Below, piece by piece: positions 2,854-53,677 of a stretch of DNA of 53,677 bases. The stretch lies in the IMG/VR virus record IMGVR_UViG_3300045988_182168, positions 1 through 53,677 of that record. One strand, given 5' to 3'. The position numbers and the translations under genes were made by a program. Below the pieces are notes generated by a model. It was not told where the DNA came from. It did not search any database and saw only the letters and a list, made by a program, of their open reading frames with translations. The stretch comes from a virus. Each line of letters starts with the position of its first letter. The stretch's first letter is position 1.

Positions 2854-3518
2854 ATGCAACTGAAAATGATGGGGTTGCTCAAATAGGTGAAATAGCACAT
2901 ATTATTGGCTCAAGTGAATATGGACCAAGAGGTGATGGCAACTTTCCAGAAGACAAATTAGATGACTATGAAAATTTAATATTATTATGCCCCTCATGTC
3001 ACAAAAAAATTGATAAACAACCAAATTCTTATTCTCCATCCGGGTTACATGAAATAAAAAGTAATCATGAAAAATGGGTGGATGAACAGTTGGAAGTATC
3101 AAATCTTGAAATTTCTTCAAAAGAATTAGACCTAATAATTAAAAACATTTCTTCTGGAGATTATGAATCTTCATTTTCATTTGAAGAATTTGAGCATATT
3201 GATGTTTCAGATAAAATTGATAAAAATGATTTTAGTAATCAGGTTAAAAGGTTTTTAGATATAGGGCTTATGAAAACATATGAAGTTAAATCATTTGTAA
3301 CCGAGATGGATAAGTTAGATAAAAATTTTATCAATAGATTAAAATCATTTTTTAAAGTTAAGTATTTAGAACTTAAAGAAAAATATGAGGATAATGATGA
3401 AATATTTTTGGAATTATGGAATTATATAAAAAAAGATGCAAATTCATTTATAGAAGAAGCAGCGGCATTATCGGTATTATGTTATATGTTTGAATTATGT
3501 GAGGTTTTTGAAAAATGA
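2823..3518 (+). CDS. HNH nuclease with C-terminal helical domain (effector of ABC-3C-like module), apparently frameshifted at its 5' end
   Basis: 'GEIAHIIGSSEYGPRGD...YENLILLCPSCHKKID' HNH motif. The tracked start is a TTG. The stop overlaps the next gene's start (ATGA at 3515). Confidence 0.7.
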   Translation: MFDVQNKNSLNATENDGVAQIGEIAHIIGSSEYGPRGDGNFPEDKLDDYENLILLCPSCHKKIDKQPNSYSPSGLHEIKSNHEKWVDEQLEVSNLEISSKELDLIIKNISSGDYESSFSFEEFEHIDVSDKIDKNDFSNQVKRFLDIGLMKTYEVKSFVTEMDKLDKNFINRLKSFFKVKYLELKEKYEDNDEIFLELWNYIKKDANSFIEEAAALSVLCYMFELCEVFEK

Positions 3519-3748
3519 TTTTGCCAAACAAATTCCTAGAAGAAAAAGATTCATTATTATATGTTGGAGCATTATTGCTGGATAAATTAGATGTTCCCTC
3601 TTCTGTTTCAGAATTATGGAATCAAGTAAATGATAATAAATCTGTGAACAATTATGAGAGGTTTATTATTACTCTCGACATGTTATATGTTCTTAATTTA
3701 ATCGAACTCAAAAATGATAAAATTAGGAGAATTAATAATGATTCATGA
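3515..3748 (+). CDS. small helical middle component of ABC-3C-like module
   Basis: 77-aa ORF overlapping both neighbours. Size and position match ABC-3C middle components as I recall them. Confidence 0.55.
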   Translation: MILPNKFLEEKDSLLYVGALLLDKLDVPSSVSELWNQVNDNKSVNNYERFIITLDMLYVLNLIELKNDKIRRINNDS

Positions 3749-5444
3749 ATTATATGCTAATAAAAGTAGTTTTAAAAAGATACAGTTTAATAAAGGTATT
3801 AATATAATATTGGCAGAGGGTGATGATAATACTGAAAATTCTAGAAATGGACTTGGAAAAACTACATTAGTACATATAATTCATTTTTGCTTAGGCGGAA
3901 CTCCAAATAAAAAATATTTGCCTGAAGACACATTTAATGATTGGGAATTTACAATTAGCATAGATATATCTAATGAGAAAATTTATGCTAAGAGGTCATT
4001 TAATGAAAAATCAATTATTATTGTTGAAGGAAATTTTAGTAAGTTTCCTTTAAAACCTACTTACTCTGAAGAAAAAGAAATTTATTTTTATACTCTGAAT
4101 GAATGGAAAGAGGTTTTAGGAACTTCATTATTAGGTTTGAAAAATGAAAAGGAATTTAGATTTAAACCTACATTTAGGAAAGTGATTAGTTATTTTATAC
4201 GCAGAGATGAAGATATCAAGAAATCTCCTTTCAAAACAAGTTCTACACATAAAAACATTGATGTAATTGATTGTACAAGTTTTTGTGTGGGTCTTGATTG
4301 GAAATTAATGTCTAAATATAAGGAATATGGAGATGAAATAAAAAGATTAAATGAAAATTTTTCTAACTTAAAGAGTATTCATGGATCAAAAGGGCAGCTA
4401 GTTCCAGAAATGAATAGATTAAAGAAAGACCTAACTAAAATTAAAGAGGATTTAGATAATTACAAAGTTCATGAGTCTTATAGACAAATTGAAAAATCTG
4501 CAGATATATTAAGCAAAGAAATTCAAGAGTTGGTTGAAAAAACTATTTTTTTAAATAAAAAAATTGACATATATGAAGAGTCTATTAAAGAAGAAAATAT
4601 TGATGATATTAATGTAGAAGAGATATATAATGAAATAAATTTTTATTTTCCGGAAAATGTTAAAAAAACATTAAGAGAATCTAAAGAATTTCATAAAAAT
4701 ATAATCTTTAATAGAACTAATTTTTTAAAAACTGAAATCCAATCAATAAAAAATGATTTATCATTAATTAATCAGGAAATTGAAATTAAATCTGATAAAA
4801 AAGCTGGATATATGGATATTTTAAATAATTTTGGAGCTTTAAACGAATATAATAATATGCAAAAATATTATACTGAACAAAAAAGTGAATATGAGTTAAT
4901 TGTAAATATTATCAAGCAATTTGATGAAATTACTAATAAAAAAAATAAATTAAAAGTAAAATTATTAGAGTTAGAATCTAGATTTCAAATCAATTATGAT
5001 GAAAATATAAATCATTTAAATTCTTTAATCGATATTTTTAGTGATAATTCATCTTATTTATATGATGTTCCAGGAGATTTAATTATTGAATGTTCTGAAA
5101 AAGGATTTGAATACAATGTGGATATTCCTAGAATAAATAGTACTGGAAAAACTAAAATGATTGTCTTATGTTATGATTTAATGTTGTTAGAAAATTTTGT
5201 TGGTTATAATTACATAGATTTCTTAATTCATGATAGCAATATTTTTGATGGTGTTGATTCTAGACAATATGCTAGTGCTTTAAATTTAATTTATGAAAAA
5301 ACAACAAAATTTGATATGCAATACATATGTATGTTGAACTCTGATTCTATTCCAGACAATTTAAATTTCAATATTGAAGATCATGTTGTTTTAGAATTGA
5401 ATGACAATTCAATTGAAGGAACATTGTTGGGTTTTGAATTTTAA
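3738..5444 (+). CDS. coiled-coil ABC ATPase (DUF2326-like, ABC-3C ATPase)
   Basis: ATG 3738 after AGGAGA. Walker A 'NGLGKTTL', long heptad-rich middle region, C-terminal 'FLIHDSNIFDGVD' Walker B/D-loop. Confidence 0.75.
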   Translation: MIHELYANKSSFKKIQFNKGINIILAEGDDNTENSRNGLGKTTLVHIIHFCLGGTPNKKYLPEDTFNDWEFTISIDISNEKIYAKRSFNEKSIIIVEGNFSKFPLKPTYSEEKEIYFYTLNEWKEVLGTSLLGLKNEKEFRFKPTFRKVISYFIRRDEDIKKSPFKTSSTHKNIDVIDCTSFCVGLDWKLMSKYKEYGDEIKRLNENFSNLKSIHGSKGQLVPEMNRLKKDLTKIKEDLDNYKVHESYRQIEKSADILSKEIQELVEKTIFLNKKIDIYEESIKEENIDDINVEEIYNEINFYFPENVKKTLRESKEFHKNIIFNRTNFLKTEIQSIKNDLSLINQEIEIKSDKKAGYMDILNNFGALNEYNNMQKYYTEQKSEYELIVNIIKQFDEITNKKNKLKVKLLELESRFQINYDENINHLNSLIDIFSDNSSYLYDVPGDLIIECSEKGFEYNVDIPRINSTGKTKMIVLCYDLMLLENFVGYNYIDFLIHDSNIFDGVDSRQYASALNLIYEKTTKFDMQYICMLNSDSIPDNLNFNIEDHVVLELNDNSIEGTLLGFEF

Positions 5445-43090: not shown

Positions 43091-43291
43091 ATGCAGTACA
43101 AGGATAATGGTTTAATTTTTGGGGGGGATAAAATTTAAAACCTATTTTTGATATAATATTTAATCGAGTAGAATGTTTTAAGTATGTTATAATTAACTCA
43201 TTGTAGACACGACAGTAGACATATTATCACATACTTATCAAATGCACTCTACATCAAACAATATAAAAAGAGAAAAATAGATTTGATAAAT

Positions 43292-44515: not shown

Positions 44516-44791
44516 ATGAAAAAGGATGCAAGAAGCTTAAGAGTGCTTCAAGAGGGGATTTCCCTTAAAGAAGTTTTTAATGTTGATTTTTTAAAAAAAC
44601 TTGAAGAAAACTTTGAAAATCTTGAAGTTATACCTATAAATGCAGCTTTTGTTTTAAAAGATGGGGAAATAAATAAGGATATTCTTACTTTATCTTATAG
44701 GAATGATGAAGAAATAAAAAGTAATACAGTTCTTATTGATGTTCAAAATAATCCTGAAACATTGGATATTATTAGAAAAACTTTAGAATAA
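44516..44791 (+). CDS. hypothetical protein
   Basis: 91-aa ORF after GGAGGAAG. Confidence 0.45.
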   Translation: MKKDARSLRVLQEGISLKEVFNVDFLKKLEENFENLEVIPINAAFVLKDGEINKDILTLSYRNDEEIKSNTVLIDVQNNPETLDIIRKTLE

Positions 44792-44810
44792 ACATTTATA
44801 GGTGGTGTCT

Positions 44811-45170
44811 ATGGTGTATTCAGTTGATAAAAATTATGGATATAATAAACCTTCTAATATTGTAGGGGATTTTTTTAAAAATAAGTTTTTTAAAAAATCA
44901 TCCACAGAGTCTTTTGAAAGTAAAATCACTGAATTTTATGATGAACTTATAAAAATTTCTGACAATTTAGGATTAGGAAAAAATATATCTATTGATACAG
45001 TGTATGATGGATTATATCCTGAAAAAGTATTTACAATTAATGTTCCATTTCATATTGATAGGAAAGAAAAATATTCTCTGTTAGACCAAATTATTAATGA
45101 TATGGTTATCTTTTCAAAGGAAAATAATATGTTTGATTTCTATAAAGATACCTATATTTTAATTAAATAA
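44811..45170 (+). CDS. hypothetical protein upstream of the HEPN-like gene
   Basis: ATG 44811 after AGGTGG. No nucleotidyltransferase GS/DxD motif seen. Confidence 0.45.
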   Translation: MVYSVDKNYGYNKPSNIVGDFFKNKFFKKSSTESFESKITEFYDELIKISDNLGLGKNISIDTVYDGLYPEKVFTINVPFHIDRKEKYSLLDQIINDMVIFSKENNMFDFYKDTYILIK

Positions 45171-45174
45171 TTTA

Positions 45175-45600
45175 TTGGGGGTTTTATACATTAATATTGA
45201 AAAATACCCTCAATATGAATTATATAAATTCACTAAGCAGTTATATGAAAATAAAGAAGAATTAATCCCTGAAAATTGCGATAATCGTTGTGTGTTTAGT
45301 ACTATTATCAATAGGTGCTATTACAGTGCTTATTTATATGTTAGTTTGTGGCTTCAGGAAGTTTATAAATTTAAACCATTGTCTAAAGAAGACTTTGGTG
45401 AAAATGAGTTTATTACAGAACATAGGCAAGTTCAATATGAACTTCTTGAGGTCAATCAGTATTCTGTTAGGAATAAACTATATGATTTATTTAATTTAAG
45501 AAAAAAAGCAGATTATGATCCTTTTTATAATATCTCTGAAGGTGAATTGGATGATGCTATGTACCTTATGGAACAAATTTTTAAAACTTTAAAAATTTGA
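45175..45600 (+). CDS. HEPN-fold protein (UPF0332-like)
   Basis: 'NRCYYSAYLYVSLWL' and 'LRKKADYD...DDAMYLMEQIFKTL' resemble the SRaYYA / R-x-x-aDY pattern I recall for this family. TTG start, uncertain. Confidence 0.5.
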   Translation: MGVLYINIEKYPQYELYKFTKQLYENKEELIPENCDNRCVFSTIINRCYYSAYLYVSLWLQEVYKFKPLSKEDFGENEFITEHRQVQYELLEVNQYSVRNKLYDLFNLRKKADYDPFYNISEGELDDAMYLMEQIFKTLKI

Positions 45601-45642: not shown

Positions 45643-45975
45643 TTAGATGAAGTGGTAGTATTCTAGGAATACTTCATCTTCATCATTGAATCTTATAAAT
45701 GCTCCTTGTTTATCTTTAAATACTATTGTTGCGTTTTGTTTTTCGTTTCCCCATGTTTTACCTGTATTGTTGTTTTTCAGGTCTGTGAATGTTATAGGGG
45801 TGTTGTTTATTGTGAATATTGGTTGTTCTTTTATGAACTCGTAGTTTTCGTTTACTGTTCGAGGTATTAGTTGTTCTAGTGTTTCGTTTAGTGATTTGCA
45901 GTTGTTTTGTATTTTTATTAATTGTATTTTTTCAGCTATTTCTTTTTTTATTCTTATGCTGGTGTAGTCAGTCAT
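45643..45975 (-). CDS. ribbon-helix-helix (CopG/Arc-like) DNA-binding protein with an extra C-terminal domain; repressor candidate
   Basis: N-terminal 'TSIRIKKEIAEKIQLIKIQNNCKSLNETLEQLI' fits a beta-strand plus two helices. Minus-strand orientation beside the integrase block. Confidence 0.5.
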   Translation of the reverse strand: MTDYTSIRIKKEIAEKIQLIKIQNNCKSLNETLEQLIPRTVNENYEFIKEQPIFTINNTPITFTDLKNNNTGKTWGNEKQNATIVFKDKQGAFIRFNDEDEVFLEYYHFI

Positions 45976-46079: not shown

Positions 46080-46217
46080 TTAATATATTATTGAATGTAT
46101 TATATTTATAATTCCTATTATGAAAAAGATGATCCATAATATTTTTGTATTTTTTGCTTGTTTTAATATTAATACTGCTATAATTAATTGTATTAAAATT
46201 AATATTGTAAATATCAT
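46080..46217 (-). CDS. 45-aa very hydrophobic peptide
   Basis: Minus-strand AAGGAGG, then a spacer, then ATG. Hand translation: MIFTILILIQLIIAVLILKQAKNTKILWIIFFIIGIINIIHSIIY. Confidence 0.4.
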   Translation of the reverse strand: MIFTILILIQLIIAVLILKQAKNTKILWIIFFIIGIINIIHSIIY

Positions 46218-46732
46218 GTTTAATTTTCCTCCTTAATTTTAATTGTGTATAAACTTTTATATATTTGAAAGAAGTAATATGTCAAATGTAAGAGGGGATT
46301 TTATTCCCTCCTACTTGCCCATAGCATGATAATCCATGTTATGATTTGACACATCACTTCTAATATGTCTATGTTATCACCTCCATGTATTTCTATTATT
46401 ATATTGTACTGCATAGTATATAAAGGTTTCTATTTTTTTAATTAAAAATATCAATACATTTTAATAACAAAAAAAGATAAAAAATATTCATTATAAAAAT
46501 GAACAATAATCTAACAGTTCACAAAACTAATTAAACACCAAAATTTAGAACACATTGTGTTTCATTTTTTCATACTGAATAATGTTTAGTGTTTTATTAT
46601 TTTCATTGAATATACTGTATTTTTAAGGTTTATTTTTTGAATAGAAACATTTATATTAACTTATAACATAAATATAAAAACAAGAACCACATTTAGAAAA
46701 TGAAAATATAATCTTTTGGAGGATAGATAATA

Positions 46733-47533
46733 ATGAATTCATTAAGAAAAAATTTTAATGAATATATACAAATAATGGATAATCATGATATGTATAATGA
46801 AAGTGTTATTAATATTGATAGTTGTAATTTTTTAACCCCAACAATTATTGCCCCATTAATAAGCTTAATGTATAATTATAATAAAAAAATAAAAAACCAT
46901 GAAAATCCTGTTGTTGAGGATTATTTTAATAAAGCAGTAGGCATAACAAAACCTAAAGACACAACTTTACCTTTCAGATTTTTGGATGAAGCCACTGATA
47001 ATTCAGAAGAGTTAACTAAAGAAATATTAAATATTATTAAACCAGCTAAAGAAGAAACACAAGCTTTAAAATATTTATTTCATGAAGTAATAAGTAATGT
47101 TTATGATCATTCAGAGTTTGATAATGGTTTTGTAATAGGTCAAACATATCCAACCCCCAACATTACTGATTTTTCATTTATGGATAATGGGATAAGTATT
47201 CCAGGGTCACTTAAAGAATTTAACATACCTTTTAAGAATGATTGTGATGCAATTATTAAAGCTATAAATGGAGAATCAACTAAAACTGATCCAGTAGGTT
47301 ATGTTGAAAGAGGAACTGGATTAAATAGTGTGATTAATATTGTCACTCGTGGAGCTAGAGGTTCAGTACTCATTGCTTCAGGTAAAGGTTTAATTGAAAT
47401 AAATAGAAATAGAATATTTTCAAAAGAAATTCCCCAAGATTATATTAAGGGGACATTAGTTAATTTAAGATTACATAATAATAGAAAAATTGATATTTAT
47501 GAGCATATGGGACATGTTGAATATGTATTATGA
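46733..47533 (+). CDS. GHKL (histidine-kinase-like) ATPase, RsbW/SpoIIAB-like
   Basis: N-box 'HEVISNVYDH', G1 'DNGISIPG', G2 'GTGLNSV'. GGAGG SD. Confidence 0.7.
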   Translation: MNSLRKNFNEYIQIMDNHDMYNESVINIDSCNFLTPTIIAPLISLMYNYNKKIKNHENPVVEDYFNKAVGITKPKDTTLPFRFLDEATDNSEELTKEILNIIKPAKEETQALKYLFHEVISNVYDHSEFDNGFVIGQTYPTPNITDFSFMDNGISIPGSLKEFNIPFKNDCDAIIKAINGESTKTDPVGYVERGTGLNSVINIVTRGARGSVLIASGKGLIEINRNRIFSKEIPQDYIKGTLVNLRLHNNRKIDIYEHMGHVEYVL

Positions 47534-47575
47534 ATTTATAATTGAAAATAAAATTTATGTGGATGGTGATAAAAA

Positions 47576-47839
47576 ATGAATGAAATTGAGATTTTATTAG
47601 AAAAAGAAATTGATTCAGATTTAGGATCAAGAAATAAAATTGAAGAATTATATAAGAATATTGATTCTAATGTTTCAAAAGTTGTGATGAATTTTAAAGG
47701 AGTAGAATTTATGGGAAGGAGTTTTGCTCAAGAATATTTAAATCAAAAACATAGTGCTTCTTTTGAAGTGGTGGAGGTTAATGTTCCTGATGATGTTCAA
47801 AAATTATTTAATGTTATTTTAAAATTAAATGGATTATAA
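47576..47839 (+). CDS. STAS-like small protein (DUF4325-like)
   Basis: 87 aa. 'KVVMNFKGVEFMGRSFAQEY' resembles the STAS-like DUF4325 core that I recall pairing with GHKL ATPases. Confidence 0.55.
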   Translation: MNEIEILLEKEIDSDLGSRNKIEELYKNIDSNVSKVVMNFKGVEFMGRSFAQEYLNQKHSASFEVVEVNVPDDVQKLFNVILKLNGL

Positions 47840-47906
47840 AAAGTTAATGTTGTTACAAATTGTAGCCAATTAGAAAAAAATAATATGTGTGGGGGATTGT
47901 TGAAAA

Positions 47907-49118
47907 ATGGATGAAAATATACAAGATTTTCCAGAAAGTCCTTTTGAACCATGGAGACCAGTATCTCCAGATAAGTTTAAAGGAAGAAAAAAAGACATTA
48001 GTAAAATCACTAGATATTTACCAAAAGTTAAAAATCAAGGAACACCAGAACATTTTTTTATAACTGGAAAAAGAGGAATGGGTAAAACATCTTTTATAAA
48101 TTATGTTTCAAGAAGAGTGGAAGAAGATTTTCAAATGATTCCCATCCATATTAACAATAGTGGAGGGAAAACTATTGATGAGTTAATACAAAAGTTACTT
48201 GATGAATTATTAATGGAATTTAAAAAGGATTACTTAGGTAAAAGTATAATTGATAAGATTTTGAATAATATTAATGAATTCAAAGTTGCAGGGACTGGGG
48301 TGTCTTTAAAAGAAAATAATAGTATAATTAAGAATATTAAAAAGCATTTTGCAGATTTTTTAATAACTACTTGTAAAGAATTGCCTGAAGATTATGGGAT
48401 ATTTATAGTTATTGATGATCTTAATGGTTTATCTGAGAATGAAAAGTTTACAGATTGGTATAAAGGATTATTTGAAACATTAACTTTTAATGATTATCAT
48501 ATTCCAATCGTGTTTACTTTAATAAGTTATCCTCATGAATTTGACAAATTATGTTTAATTAATGAATCTTTTTCTAGAATGTTTCATTTAATAGAAATTG
48601 ATAACTTAGAAGATTATGATATTGAAGATTTTTTTAAAACTTCATTTAATAATGTGGGGATTGAGTTTGAAGATGGGTATAAATCTATAGAACCTATGGT
48701 TTATTTTTCATGGGGTATGCCTTTAATAATGCAACAAATAGGGGATTCTATTTTTTGGAATGCTCAAGATAATTTAAAAATAAATGAAGATGTGGTGTCT
48801 TTAGGTATTGTTGATGCAACTGATGAATTAGGGAAAAAACAATTAAAATCAAAATTAAATAAAATTAGGAGTGATACATATTTAGATATATTTCTTAAAT
48901 TGGGTGATAAAAGGTTAATGACTTTTAAAAAATCGGAGGTAAAAGATTTTTTGACAATTGATGAAAATAGAGTTTTCAATGATTTTTTAAAGAGAGCTAA
49001 AGAACTTGAGATAATAGAGTCTATTGGTAGAAATAATAGTGGGGAATATGGTTTTGTAAATAGATTATATTTCACATATTTCATGATGTTATCAAATGTT
49101 AAAAATCTAAAAAAATAG
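47907..49118 (+). CDS. AAA/STAND-like ATPase (archaeal ATPase / ORC-Cdc6-like) with C-terminal wHTH-like region
   Basis: 'FKGRKKDI...FFITGKRGMGKTSFINY' Walker A and 'IFIVIDDLNGL' Walker B. Confidence 0.7.
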   Translation: MDENIQDFPESPFEPWRPVSPDKFKGRKKDISKITRYLPKVKNQGTPEHFFITGKRGMGKTSFINYVSRRVEEDFQMIPIHINNSGGKTIDELIQKLLDELLMEFKKDYLGKSIIDKILNNINEFKVAGTGVSLKENNSIIKNIKKHFADFLITTCKELPEDYGIFIVIDDLNGLSENEKFTDWYKGLFETLTFNDYHIPIVFTLISYPHEFDKLCLINESFSRMFHLIEIDNLEDYDIEDFFKTSFNNVGIEFEDGYKSIEPMVYFSWGMPLIMQQIGDSIFWNAQDNLKINEDVVSLGIVDATDELGKKQLKSKLNKIRSDTYLDIFLKLGDKRLMTFKKSEVKDFLTIDENRVFNDFLKRAKELEIIESIGRNNSGEYGFVNRLYFTYFMMLSNVKNLKK

Positions 49119-49157
49119 AAGAACAATTAAATGCAAAATAAGTAAATTATGTATAAA

Positions 49158-49199
49158 GTGTAGGTGGTCGTAGGAATGGCAGTTCCTCACACCTAACAC
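49158..49199. other. double-stem hairpin with TGGCAG loop (copy 1)
   Basis: Outer GTGTAGGTG/CACCTaACAC, inner AGGAA-TGGCAG-TTCCT. Shares the 12-mer GAATGGCAGTTC with 50955-50994. Confidence 0.6.
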
Positions 49200-49316
49200 T
49201 GGCTACGATAAAAAAAGTCTAACATAACAAGTGAGAAAATTTTTAGTAACCACTTTTATTTATAGTGTTGGTGAGTATATAATAATTACTAATATTATTT
49301 AAAAAAAGTTAAAAGT

Positions 49317-49478
49317 TTATTCTAATTTTTTCACTTTAATTTCTTGAGTATTCAAGTCTAATTCCCATTCTACTTCATCTCCTTTTTGTAATGAGAGAGC
49401 GTCCCTAATTGTTTTTGGGATTGAAGTAGTCAATGATCCTGCTACGGATTGGACTTTTGTTGTATATTTCAATTTCAT
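49317..49478 (-). CDS. AbrB/MazE/SpoVT-type DNA-binding protein (53 aa)
   Basis: Hand translation MKLKYTTKVQSVAGSLTTSIPKTIRDALSLQKGDEVEWELDLNTQEIKVKKLE. 'SLTTSIPKTIRDALSLQKGDEVEW' is the looped-hinge-helix signature. GGAG SD. Confidence 0.6.
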   Translation of the reverse strand: MKLKYTTKVQSVAGSLTTSIPKTIRDALSLQKGDEVEWELDLNTQEIKVKKLE

Positions 49479-49535
49479 ACACTCCATTATATTTATAATT
49501 ATATTTATAATTATAATATTATATATAGATTTCTA

Positions 49536-50907
49536 ATATATTTGTCACTTTCAAAAACTTGTGTGATTTGAATTTTCACTAGTTTTTGAGTCACGAATTT
49601 TTTTCGTTCTATTTTTTCTTTATTTTTAATTTAAAAGCAGTAAAATTAATATATTAAGTGGAGCTAATATATTAATATGTCTAGTATCAAAATAAAAGCT
49701 CCATATGAATTTATGGAGTCAAAACAATTTAAACTTTTCGATTTTGTTCCTGAGTTTTCTGAATTCCGTCAATTTGATGATCTTTCTCGATTTGGTTGCG
49801 AAAATATTGAGAATAATCTTATCAGATTGGAAAAAAGAGGTAAAATACATTTTGAGAATAGAGTTGCAATTTGTCCATCTTGTAAATCACATAATGCTGT
49901 TAAAAATGGTACTTATGAACGTAAACTTATTTTTTTAAGAATTGGAGAACAAATTTGCACTATTCAAAAATATAAGTGCATAAAATGCGGTAAAGTCTTT
50001 TATACTGATTTATTATCTCTTGTTTATTCTAATTCAAATATTACATTGCCTGTTATTGAATGTATTGAGAATTTATATCAAATTTATGGAGCAGGGCTCC
50101 ATAAAATACGATTTGATTTAAAACAACAACATAACATCGAAATCTCACATCAAAGCATTGAAAACATCTTATTGAACTCTAATTATCAATTTAACTATGA
50201 TAATTGGACTTATTCTGGATATTACTTATTTGATAGTCTTTGGGTTAAAATTAATGGTGAATGGAATTATATTTTAGCCTTATTCGACGTTAAATTGAAT
50301 ACTCTCGTTTCCGTCAAATTGGTCGAATCAGAAGATTCTAAGACCATTTATCAATTTTTAAACGAATCTCTAAGAAATCAGAAAAAAATATCAATAGGCA
50401 CAGACTTAAAACACGAATATCGTGAAGCCATCGATAAATTAAAAGTAAAACACAATTTCTGCAAATTTCACGTGAAACAAGCAGTAAACAAAAGATTTAA
50501 AGATTACTTTGACAAAAATCCATTATCTGAAGACGAAAAAGACATATTAAATTGTTTAAAACAGGACATTTATAAAATATTGGATGCAAAAGACTTAAAT
50601 ACTGCTAAAGAACTTAGAAACGAATTAATAAACAAAAAATATACAAAAAACAAGTTCACAAACAAAATTCTTTGGAAATTCATCATTCCTTACTTCAAAA
50701 AATTAACGACACACCTGGAAAACACGAACATCCCATCAACAAACAATAAAATCGAAAATATCTTCCAAAAAGTATTCCCAAAACACATAAAAAGAACAAT
50801 GAAAATAGAACAAGGACTTCTAGCCAGATTCATGCTAAAACTAAATTATTGGAATTTAAACAATGAAAAAGAAAAAAATCACACAAGTTTTTGAAAGAGC
50901 CATATAT
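49536..50907 (+). mobile_element. insertion sequence (~1.37 kb) with terminal inverted repeats
   Basis: Perfect 22-bp inverted core, CTTTCAAAAACTTGTGTGATTT at 49548-49569 versus 50876-50897, extended imperfectly to ATATAT ends. Possible TTCTA flanking duplication (49531-49535, 50908-50912). Single transposase ORF. Confidence 0.75.
49677..50894 (+). CDS. transposase (zinc-finger N-terminus, DDE-like core)
   Basis: 'CPSCKSHN...KCIKCGKVF'. Candidate acidic residues in 'LFDSLWV', 'IGTDLKHEY' and 'NNKIENIFQK'. The 3' end runs into the right inverted repeat. Confidence 0.7.
   Translation: MSSIKIKAPYEFMESKQFKLFDFVPEFSEFRQFDDLSRFGCENIENNLIRLEKRGKIHFENRVAICPSCKSHNAVKNGTYERKLIFLRIGEQICTIQKYKCIKCGKVFYTDLLSLVYSNSNITLPVIECIENLYQIYGAGLHKIRFDLKQQHNIEISHQSIENILLNSNYQFNYDNWTYSGYYLFDSLWVKINGEWNYILALFDVKLNTLVSVKLVESEDSKTIYQFLNESLRNQKKISIGTDLKHEYREAIDKLKVKHNFCKFHVKQAVNKRFKDYFDKNPLSEDEKDILNCLKQDIYKILDAKDLNTAKELRNELINKKYTKNKFTNKILWKFIIPYFKKLTTHLENTNIPSTNNKIENIFQKVFPKHIKRTMKIEQGLLARFMLKLNYWNLNNEKEKNHTSF

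Positions 50908-53484: not shown

Positions 53485-53677
<193 letters not shown>

Follow-up and report, generated by a model that had tools for sequence, protein, structure and literature searches.

CapK, a serine kinase built from helix-turn-helix (HTH), STAS and GHKL domains and activated by single-stranded DNA (ssDNA), phosphorylates a conserved serine on helix 2 of CapS, a protein with STAS and winged helix-turn-helix (wHTH) modules, whereupon the CapS dimer is broken and adjacent immune operons (CBASS, Bub, Thoeris and others) are de-repressed (Chambers et al., EMBO J 2026, PMC13373217). In the VapKSC toxin-antitoxin and anti-phage system described in the same study, the kinase VapK has a STAS-GHKL architecture without an HTH, VapS adds a short C-terminal helix to its STAS domain, and the PIN toxin VapC is kept inactive by VapS (VapS-VapC structure 9Z7O). 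Protection by VapKSC from a phage amounts to about 2 logs, and defence genes are found close to 36% of vapKSC loci. VapK residue F54, located between the STAS and GHKL domains like its CapK counterpart W68, is required for protection and predicted to stack on ssDNA (PMC13373217). We analysed here a viral DNA stretch of 53,677 nucleotides (IMG/VR record IMGVR_UViG_3300045988_182168; hereafter the window, by which we mean the whole stretch at its full length), in which three genes lie side by side on the plus strand: gene 1 (46733-47533, 266 aa), gene 2 (47576-47839, 87 aa) and gene 3 (47907-49118, 403 aa). BLASTN relates the window to Methanobrevibacter smithii tailed virus 1 (MSTV1, PP537965), with 92-98% identity across the integrase, lysogeny and early regions of the backbone and with window position 43203 matching MSTV1 position 1. 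A reading of the sequence alone (the original prediction) had placed three co-oriented open reading frames (ORFs) of these lengths at 46733-49118, where they are confirmed, and had proposed them as a candidate undescribed conflict system of the partner-switching type. Based on sequence comparison, we find that genes 1 and 2, referred to below as the pair, are distant homologues of the VapK/VapS, CapK/CapS family, which was named and characterised in 2026 (PMC13373217), so that the pair cannot be called undescribed. The pair forms an autonomous mobile two-gene unit, gene 3 is a separate, independently exchangeable cassette beside it, and the trio is not a conserved unit.

Gene 1 encodes a putative VapK/CapK-like serine kinase whose N-terminal part (about residues 1-100) is a STAS-like domain and whose C-terminal part is a GHKL domain. 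Taken alone it retrieves nothing significant in Pfam, NCBIfam and PDB sequence searches, and a gene 1 profile has no significant match in the PDB. The GHKL assignment of the original prediction, drawn from the boxes HEVISNVYDH, DNGISIPG and GTGLNSV, is nonetheless borne out by two lines of evidence. In an alignment of 23 relatives the Bergerat-fold N, G1 and G2 boxes are invariant (E118-x3-N122-x3-H126, with E118/N122 at 47084-47098, D151-x-G153 and R193-G194-x-G196), and the AlphaFold2 model (predicted local distance difference test score, pLDDT, of 85) matches the folds of Hsp90-N, GyrB and SpoIIAB. The best compact match is the anti-sigma kinase SpoIIAB 1tid_C, with a template modelling (TM) score of 0.71 on the target at probability 1.00, and SpoIIAB matches as a group span TM 0.58-0.71 on the target. 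The STAS-like character of the N-terminal domain is indicated indirectly, by the alternating strand/helix pattern of the first ~100 residues of the model, by the Pfam STAS match (E=1.5e-7) in the equivalent N-terminal region of a Burkholderia phage homologue, which also matches HATPase_c, and by the alignment with VapK described below. A Streptococcus phage homologue matches HATPase_c_2, the SpoIIAB-type Pfam model, and gene 1 itself matches phrog_3364; a PADLOC match to DrmA (E=3.5e-4) was set aside as weak and non-specific. The index of a public assembly collection lists the exact gene 1 protein in 710 blocks, and its profile retrieves 2,949 clusters at 50% identity (860 with E<=1e-10), nearly all of 255-285 aa and aligned end to end, which argues that these ORFs did not arise by chance; the taxonomy listed for cluster members names M. 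filiformis and a Micrarchaeota metagenome-assembled genome. The starts of genes 1, 2 and 3 are preceded by the Shine-Dalgarno-like sites GGAGG, GGTGAT and GGGGGA, respectively, in agreement with the good ribosome-binding sites seen in the original prediction, and the intergenic gaps of 42 bp (genes 1-2) and 67 bp (genes 2-3) hold no long T-run.

Gene 2 encodes a VapS-like protein that comprises a STAS domain only, of the DUF4325 type, with neither a wHTH nor a C-terminal extension. The window protein, which carries the motif VVMNFKGVEFMGRSFAQEY on which the original DUF4325 assignment relied, scores 17.5 bits against the Pfam model and thus stays under its 23-bit threshold; its bacterial-phage homologues exceed the threshold, with up to 56 bits, as does ORFC of the Methanothermobacter provirus psiM100, to which gene 2 is 36% identical (BLASTP E=8e-16). 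Together with the match of the family profile to VapS, these scores sustain the assignment. Similarity to the NCBIfam SpoIIAA/anti-sigma antagonist models is weak (16.5 bits against a cut-off of 114.75). The top PDB match of the gene 2 family profile is Escherichia VapS (9z7o_A, E=2.3e-5), and in the profile alignment the putative phospho-acceptor Ser49 (47720-47722) falls exactly on the VapS phospho-acceptor S48, once the 18-residue tag of the crystallised chain is subtracted from the VapS numbering. Among 120 gene 2 homologues, 118 fit the search pattern for this site (112 with Ser, 2 with Thr and 4 with Ala), and the two outside the pattern also carry Ser by inspection. Gene 2 is moreover the better conserved member of the pair in 22 of 25 loci (among L002-L029; L- and P-numbers denote loci and homologues compared with the window), typically by 15-25 percentage points, as in L023 (68% identity to the window protein versus 39% for gene 1) and L012 (85% versus 67%). 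Such a consistent excess suggests that gene 2 contacts something conserved besides the kinase.

For comparison with the kinase side of the family, residues 1-286 of E. coli VapK were taken from the AlphaFold 3 model file supplementing Chambers et al. The alignment of gene 1 with VapK extends over both domains (247 aa at 23% identity, BLASTP E=3e-7; hhalign probability 84.7%, E=6.7e-6), and the gene 1 segment CNF33LTP (F33 at 46829-46831) is aligned to VapK CRF54LRP in a common C-x-F-L-x-P motif. The F33 position is aromatic (F or W) in 16 of 19 diverse gene 1 family members, and E118, N122, D151, G153 and G194 are invariant over the archaeal, phage and E. coli members. The kinship of the pair to VapK/VapS follows from the VapS profile match, the VapK alignment over both domains and the F33/F54 motif, the gene 1-VapK relationship having been established only via structure prediction and the VapK sequence.

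The architectural parallels are close: gene 1, like VapK, combines STAS and GHKL domains without an HTH (266 versus ~290 aa), the kinase gene is followed immediately by a small DUF4325-type STAS gene, and the acceptor (S49/S48), the aromatic (F33/F54) and the GHKL N, G1 and G2 boxes are all kept. The differences concern the output. The window has no VapC/PIN gene, related loci show no PIN enrichment, and the 87-aa gene 2 product lacks the C-terminal inhibitory helix of VapS (residues 94-116). In accordance with this, no PIN or wHTH domain was found in the pair cassette by a Pfam scan of the window, the 25 commonest of the 76 Pfam families matched by the 71 neighbour proteins scanned do not include PIN, and the absence of an obvious effector domain noted in the original prediction is correct. 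A tblastn search of plasmids with a VapS fragment returned only a truncated Leptotrichia DUF4325 gene and was not useful. With CapK/CapS, the pair shares a STAS-GHKL kinase and a STAS substrate encoded upstream of variable cassettes that are exchanged independently of them, and by analogy it may also share the logic of an ssDNA-activated phospho-serine switch; unlike CapK and CapS, however, it has neither the N-terminal HTH of the kinase nor the C-terminal wHTH repressor module of the substrate. Since the pair holds no DNA-binding domain, gene 2 is unlikely to control transcription directly. SpoIIAB/SpoIIAA and RsbW/RsbV likewise consist of a GHKL serine kinase that phosphorylates a single-domain STAS protein on helix 2, but gene 1 has an additional N-terminal STAS-like domain, as in CapK/VapK, and the sigma factor of those switches has no place in archaea, which are not known to have any. 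The partner-switching logic of kinase and STAS antagonist that the original prediction had recognised thus stands for genes 1 and 2, through their homology to VapK/VapS and CapK/CapS.

Genes 1 and 2 are tightly linked. Gene 2 lies immediately 3' of gene 1 in all 18 loci from species-representative genomes and in 65 of the 67 metagenome loci with enough downstream sequence, and the same order is found in psiM100, in Bacteroides, Streptococcus and Burkholderia prophages and in other M. smithii proviruses; scans of IMG/VR yielded few loci (4 and 3). The tie to gene 3 is of a different kind. At ten distinct places where a 100% identical gene 1 is followed by the 87-aa gene 2, the downstream cassette differs: it is gene 3 at five, a 153-aa membrane protein with a Bro-N protein at four, and a 146-aa protein with a SHOCT protein at one. 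In MSTV1, conversely, gene 3 is present, but a 143-aa wHTH/RhuM-like ORF6 occupies the place of the pair, and in L043 the 153-aa membrane protein (98% identical) replaces the pair 5' of a gene 3 relative. In L004 and L005-8 the pair is directly followed by a reverse-strand MazE-like gene. Gene 3 and the pair occur together in the window, L014, L030-33 and the five identical-pair places mentioned above, all of them MSTV1-like proviruses; gene 3 accompanies the pair in one of the 18 genome loci, in no bacterial phage, not in psiM100, and in none of the 78 metagenome loci with the pair. The intact trio recurs in many M. smithii proviruses, and M. smithii chromosomes hold integrated identical copies of the region beside a cation-efflux gene or a tetratricopeptide repeat (TPR) gene. 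Nevertheless, because identical pairs precede unrelated cassettes and gene 3 is found in MSTV1 without the pair, the trio cannot be regarded as a unit: as a conserved system it fails outside one M. smithii provirus lineage, and within that lineage, too, exchanges of gene 3 and of the pair are independent. In L132 and L134, downstream genes of 143 aa were considered as displaced copies of MSTV1 ORF6 and rejected.

The boundaries of the exchanged segments can be placed precisely. A conserved backbone segment on the plus strand (46600-46686), promoter-proximal and carrying the TATA-like TTTATATT, is identical in the window, MSTV1, L037, L042 and L043, and ends at the left junction of the variable slot, the sequences diverging by cassette after 46686; all 10 MSTV1-like loci carry the junction word AACATAAATATAAAAACAAGAA immediately ahead of the variable segment. 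The swapped cassette that follows (slot A, 46687-47920, plus strand) holds genes 1 and 2 and replaces MSTV1 3452-3994, which encodes the wHTH protein ORF6. By BLASTN its flanks are 98% and 88% identical to MSTV1 with no similarity inside the cassette, and junction alignments put the breakpoints at window positions 46686 and 47921, so that a recombination junction separates genes 2 and 3. From the swapping of downstream cassettes and the common junction word, it follows that two or more adjacent slots, each exchangeable without the other, follow a conserved promoter-like segment in this region, gene 3 constituting the second (slot B). The MSTV1 counterpart of 46600-46686 stands in front of ORF6, whose expression in lysogens is the highest of all provirus genes, within a region that the MSTV1 authors describe as hypervariable and rich in defence and counter-defence genes (PMC11375127). 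We infer that 46600-46686 is the promoter of the cassette, and since the latter starts right after the segment that precedes MSTV1 ORF6, the pair is probably expressed during lysogeny from the same backbone promoter, by analogy with ORF6.

The 153-aa protein, which has predicted membrane segments and no Pfam family, makes up a cassette of its own (L037 7168-7629, L043 4396-4857, and L127, L128, L130 and L134). It is found in two settings, behind the pair and accompanied by the Bro-N protein, or substituting for the pair ahead of a gene 3 relative, and its role may be that of an effector or of a superinfection-exclusion protein. A further variable slot lies just after the integrase (window 44516-45600). 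In the window and MSTV1 it holds a three-gene, HEPN-containing toxin-antitoxin-like cassette (91, 122 and 141 aa), in near-identical proviruses (L030, L125 1248-1926) MJ0788-like and DUF2283 genes, and in L133 another gene set that includes a weak PIN_4 match.

Gene 3 (slot B), the homologue of MSTV1 ORF7, encodes an AAA+ ATPase that is Orc1/Cdc6-like and has a winged helix at its C-terminus. The original prediction had described an ORC/STAND-like ATPase with a wHTH-like C-terminus from the motifs ITGKRGMGKTSF and IVIDDLNGL, which, like those quoted for genes 1 and 2, are all present in the translations, and this description is correct. The protein scores 39.8 bits against Pfam AAA_16 (threshold 32.6), has Walker A GKRGMGKTS and Walker B IVIDD motifs, and yields a profile whose best PDB match is Sulfolobus Cdc6-1 (2qby_A, E=5.8e-8); its full-length AlphaFold2 model (pLDDT 81.5), which ends in a helix-hairpin winged helix, best matches the archaeal Orc1/Cdc6 structures 1w5t_A (E=9e-9), 2v1u, 2qby and 1fnn, with TM scores of ~0.45-0.5. 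It is at the same time no canonical initiator and is better described as a divergent Orc1/Cdc6-like or ATPase_2 protein, given that the curated thresholds of TIGR02928 and PRK00411 are not reached (40.8 bits against a cut-off of 181.3 for TIGR02928, over the N-terminal part only), that NB-ARC STAND structures score nearly equal to ORC for the model, and that the 'DD' of its Walker B resembles STAND/Arch_ATPase. PADLOC matches of its P-loop region (PtuA, SspC and others) were treated as generic and non-specific.

The gene 3 region is 88% identical to MSTV1 ORF7 at the nucleotide level, the homologue being 84-85% identical and located at the same genomic position. As ORF7 is annotated as Orc1/Cdc6 and proposed to be the lysis-lysogeny (induction) activator (PMC11375127), the view expressed in the original prediction that the genes lie far from any replication function is doubtful. 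Relative to the ORF6/ORF7 arrangement of MSTV1, whose role as a switch is a transcriptome-based hypothesis (PMC11375127), the window retains gene 3 at the ORF7 position, but the wHTH repressor ORF6 is absent and the kinase-STAS pair stands in its place. The Orf4/Orf7/Orf8 module of SNJ2 (PMC10123103) differs in that no SNJ2 Orf7-like gene was identified here. In L034/L035 (5001-7474), a 60%-identical gene 3 homologue lies directly 5' of a canonical Cdc6 gene (AAA_16 + Cdc6_lid) on a Methanobrevibacter chromosome, without the pair; the gene 3 family is accordingly not virus-specific. A separate single-domain STAS gene is found ~2 kb from this homologue.

The pair occurs in proviruses, archaeal chromosomes and bacterial prophages. 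In Methanothermobacter, a homologous pair (31% and 36% identity) is formed by ORFB and ORFC of the psiM100 fragment IFa and by MTH315/MTH316, all annotated only as hypothetical proteins. IFa is carried as an insertion in a defective provirus and is absent from the sister phage psiM2, so that here, too, and independently, the pair has travelled as cargo; it differs from the window in its third ORF, ORFD (492 aa), which is unrelated to gene 3 and was rejected as an analogue, having no similarity and no ATPase domain. The fragment (L002 4682-7474) begins inside a triple 125-bp direct repeat. A shorter pair (~230 and 88 aa) occupies a conserved non-viral site in nine rumen Methanobrevibacter genomes, between a TctA transporter gene on one side and methyltransferase and type-IV-pilus-like assembly genes on the other. 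The bacterial-prophage pairs stand at typical moron positions: in Streptococcus the pair follows the lysis genes and adjoins paratox, in the Burkholderia phage it is flanked by integrase and BrnTA, and in Francisella KIRK by CI and integrase. Across 57 non-redundant metagenome loci the immediate neighbours are heterogeneous, roughly half of them on the opposite strand. The Pfam families found in the 71 neighbour proteins include defence-type ones (restriction-modification methylases, AbiEii, nucleotidyltransferases, RhuM and a few STAND/AAA NTPases) as well as housekeeping ones (IMPDH, TFB, FtsZ and Thi4).

Taken together, we consider it likely that genes 1 and 2 constitute an autonomous, mobile phospho-switch of the CapK/CapS-VapK/VapS family with a target in trans, from which gene 3 is separate. 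By analogy with the bacterial kinases (PMC13373217), gene 1 would be an ssDNA-activated serine kinase that phosphorylates gene 2 at Ser49, on the second helix of the STAS domain, and phosphorylation would alter the choice of binding partner by gene 2. The output is most likely encoded outside the cassette, by the host or the virus, as a conserved factor that acts in trans, because both the CapS wHTH and the VapS helix are missing from gene 2 and because an identical gene 2 is found beside unrelated genes; a further conserved partner would also be in keeping with gene 2 being better conserved than gene 1. Kinase activity, ssDNA activation, S49 phosphorylation and the trans target are all inferences. 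Several observations weigh against this interpretation. The similarity to VapK/VapS is remote (23% identity, hhalign only 85%), the N-terminus of the window gene 1 has no direct STAS domain match, a few family members have Leu at the F33 position, and gene 2 is devoid of both known output modules, namely the CapS wHTH and the VapS C-terminal helix that engages VapC. No phosphatase that could reset the switch was seen nearby, PP2C/SpoIIE matches being absent among the annotated neighbours. Finally, four of the 120 gene 2 homologues (P0110, P0113, P0124 and P0150) have Ala at the acceptor site, in the sequence FMGRAFAQE; these could be non-phosphorylatable, 'locked' variants, or the acceptor could be dispensable in some members.

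A lineage-specific role of the trio, in which DNA damage would generate ssDNA, activate gene 1 and produce phosphorylated gene 2 that frees or activates gene 3 and so triggers provirus induction, following VapKSC logic with the Orc1/Cdc6-like protein in place of VapC, appears improbable. Its appeal stems from the co-orientation of the three genes with gaps of 42 and 67 bp and no evident terminator, from the recurrence of the intact trio among M. smithii proviruses, and from the exact replacement by the pair of the proposed lysogeny repressor ORF6 of MSTV1, 5' of the proposed activator ORF7, in a switch to which the MSTV1 authors assign no trigger (PMC11375127). The viral Orc1/Cdc6 of SNJ2 is activated by mitomycin C damage via a post-translational step not yet pinned down (PMC10123103), CapK-type kinases are ssDNA-activated, and VapS inhibits the product of the next gene downstream (PMC13373217). 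Against such a pathway, 100% identical copies of genes 1 and 2 precede unrelated cassettes without gene 3, gene 3 functions in MSTV1 without the pair, not one of 78 diverse loci joins the pair to a gene 3 relative, the recombination junction runs between genes 2 and 3, and gene 2 has no VapS-like C-terminal inhibitory extension. A link of the pair to Orc1/Cdc6-driven induction is possible but unsupported, and we give a similarly low probability to the proposal that, in MSTV1-like proviruses, the pair supplies the DNA-damage input that is missing from the archaeal lysis-lysogeny switch, functionally replacing ORF6, with phosphorylated gene 2 unleashing whichever regulator lies downstream, be it the Orc1/Cdc6-like ATPase or the Bro-N antirepressor-like protein. 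If this were true, archaeal viruses would have a RecA/LexA-independent, kinase-based induction pathway, and the post-translational step postulated for the SNJ2 Orc1/Cdc6 would be identified.

A prophage cassette for defence, abortive infection or superinfection exclusion, in which phage ssDNA would activate the kinase and lead to growth arrest or interference, either via a trans effector held by gene 2 or because gene 1 phosphorylates promiscuously when the gene 2 buffer runs out, is possible, if on balance unlikely. It is compatible with the mobile phospho-switch favoured above and differs from it on output only. The anti-phage protection by VapKSC and its frequent location near defence genes (PMC13373217) speak for it, as do the situation of the pair in the hypervariable, defence-rich region of MSTV1 (PMC11375127), where it alternates with the small membrane protein and adjoins the HEPN toxin-antitoxin-like cassette, the moron positions in the Streptococcus, Burkholderia and Francisella KIRK prophages, and the restriction-modification methylases, AbiEii and STAND NTPases among some metagenome neighbours. 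Many neighbours are on the other hand housekeeping genes, the rumen Methanobrevibacter pair keeps a conserved chromosomal site (TctA/pilus assembly), no PADLOC model matches beyond the weak DrmA, and there is neither an effector in the cassette nor an enrichment of PIN genes nearby. Far less probable is a classical switch of the SpoIIAB/RsbW type, where a transcription factor (e.g. a viral regulator, or TFB/TBP) would be sequestered by gene 1 until displaced by gene 2 in its unphosphorylated form, with host or viral transcription reprogrammed as a result. The compact structural match to SpoIIAB, the weak anti-sigma antagonist matches of gene 2 and the HATPase_c_2 match of the Streptococcus phage homologue would agree with such a mechanism, but the absence of sigma factors from archaea and of a PP2C phosphatase from the annotated neighbours would not. 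The extra STAS-like domain of gene 1, absent in SpoIIAB/RsbW and shared with CapK/VapK, and the fact that the closest sequence relatives of the pair are VapK/VapS rather than RsbW/RsbV, also argue for a switch of the VapK/CapK family.

We take CapK/CapS and VapK/VapS to have been described so far only in bacteria, and always with a built-in output in the form of a wHTH or a PIN toxin. The pair adds to them a stripped-down, effector-less two-gene form with a STAS-only partner, which is widespread (~2,900 clusters at 50% identity for the gene 1 profile) and resides in archaea and archaeal viruses, including the one studied here. Also new are its cassette behaviour in a recombination hotspot of a very prevalent human-gut provirus of M. 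smithii, the chief methanogen of the human gut, the exact kinase sequence being present in 710 blocks of the assembly collection, and its place beside a putative induction ATPase. These findings raise the question of what a DNA-damage-type kinase switch without an attached effector acts on, and make damage sensing by archaeal proviruses, a long-standing gap, experimentally approachable; correcting the trio hypothesis in turn keeps a mis-defined 'system' out of catalogues.

The flanks of the three genes are as the original prediction had them, with a small reverse-strand gene upstream and an insertion sequence (IS) downstream, and with one addition. The upstream gene (45643-45975, minus strand), a backbone gene divergent from the pair cassette, is the homologue of MSTV1 ORF5 (98% identity); a Pfam scan of its product gave no match, and the MSTV1 authors describe ORF5 as a VapB-like antitoxin/DNA-binding protein (PMC11375127). 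Between gene 3 and the IS, and not mentioned before, lies a backbone gene for a small MazE/AbrB-like DNA-binding protein (49317-49487, minus strand; Pfam MazE_antitoxin E=7e-8, over threshold) at the head of the early operon, and a MazE-like gene follows the variable slots in most related proviruses. The IS itself (49538-50907, plus strand) is outside the module, inserted between the MazE-like gene and the early operon at a site that is empty in MSTV1 and L030/L037. It is bounded by terminal inverted repeats of 32 nt that are 91% complementary (49538-49569 and 50876-50907), and its transposase gene (49677-50894) encodes a 405-aa protein of the DDE_Tnp_IS240 type, matched in Pfam, with an N-terminal zinc ribbon.

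The base composition of the region is ~25% G+C. Just 3' of gene 3, an imperfect, G+C-richer inverted repeat, GTGTAGGTGG...CACACCTAACAC, is found at 49155-49200; this segment is 82% conserved in L037 despite the absence of gene 3 there, and might serve as a terminator or recombination site or encode a small RNA. On the other side, part of the 757-bp intergenic region 5' of gene 1 (46121-46373) has no MSTV1 counterpart, and a 92-aa ORF that L037, L042 and L043 have in this intergenic region is not intact in the window. Finally, positions 1-69 and 53609-53677 consist of the same (ATT)23 microsatellite, an exact 69-nt overlap of the two ends from which the contig appears to be circularly permuted or closed at the trinucleotide repeat, and synteny with the relatives continues across the window ends.

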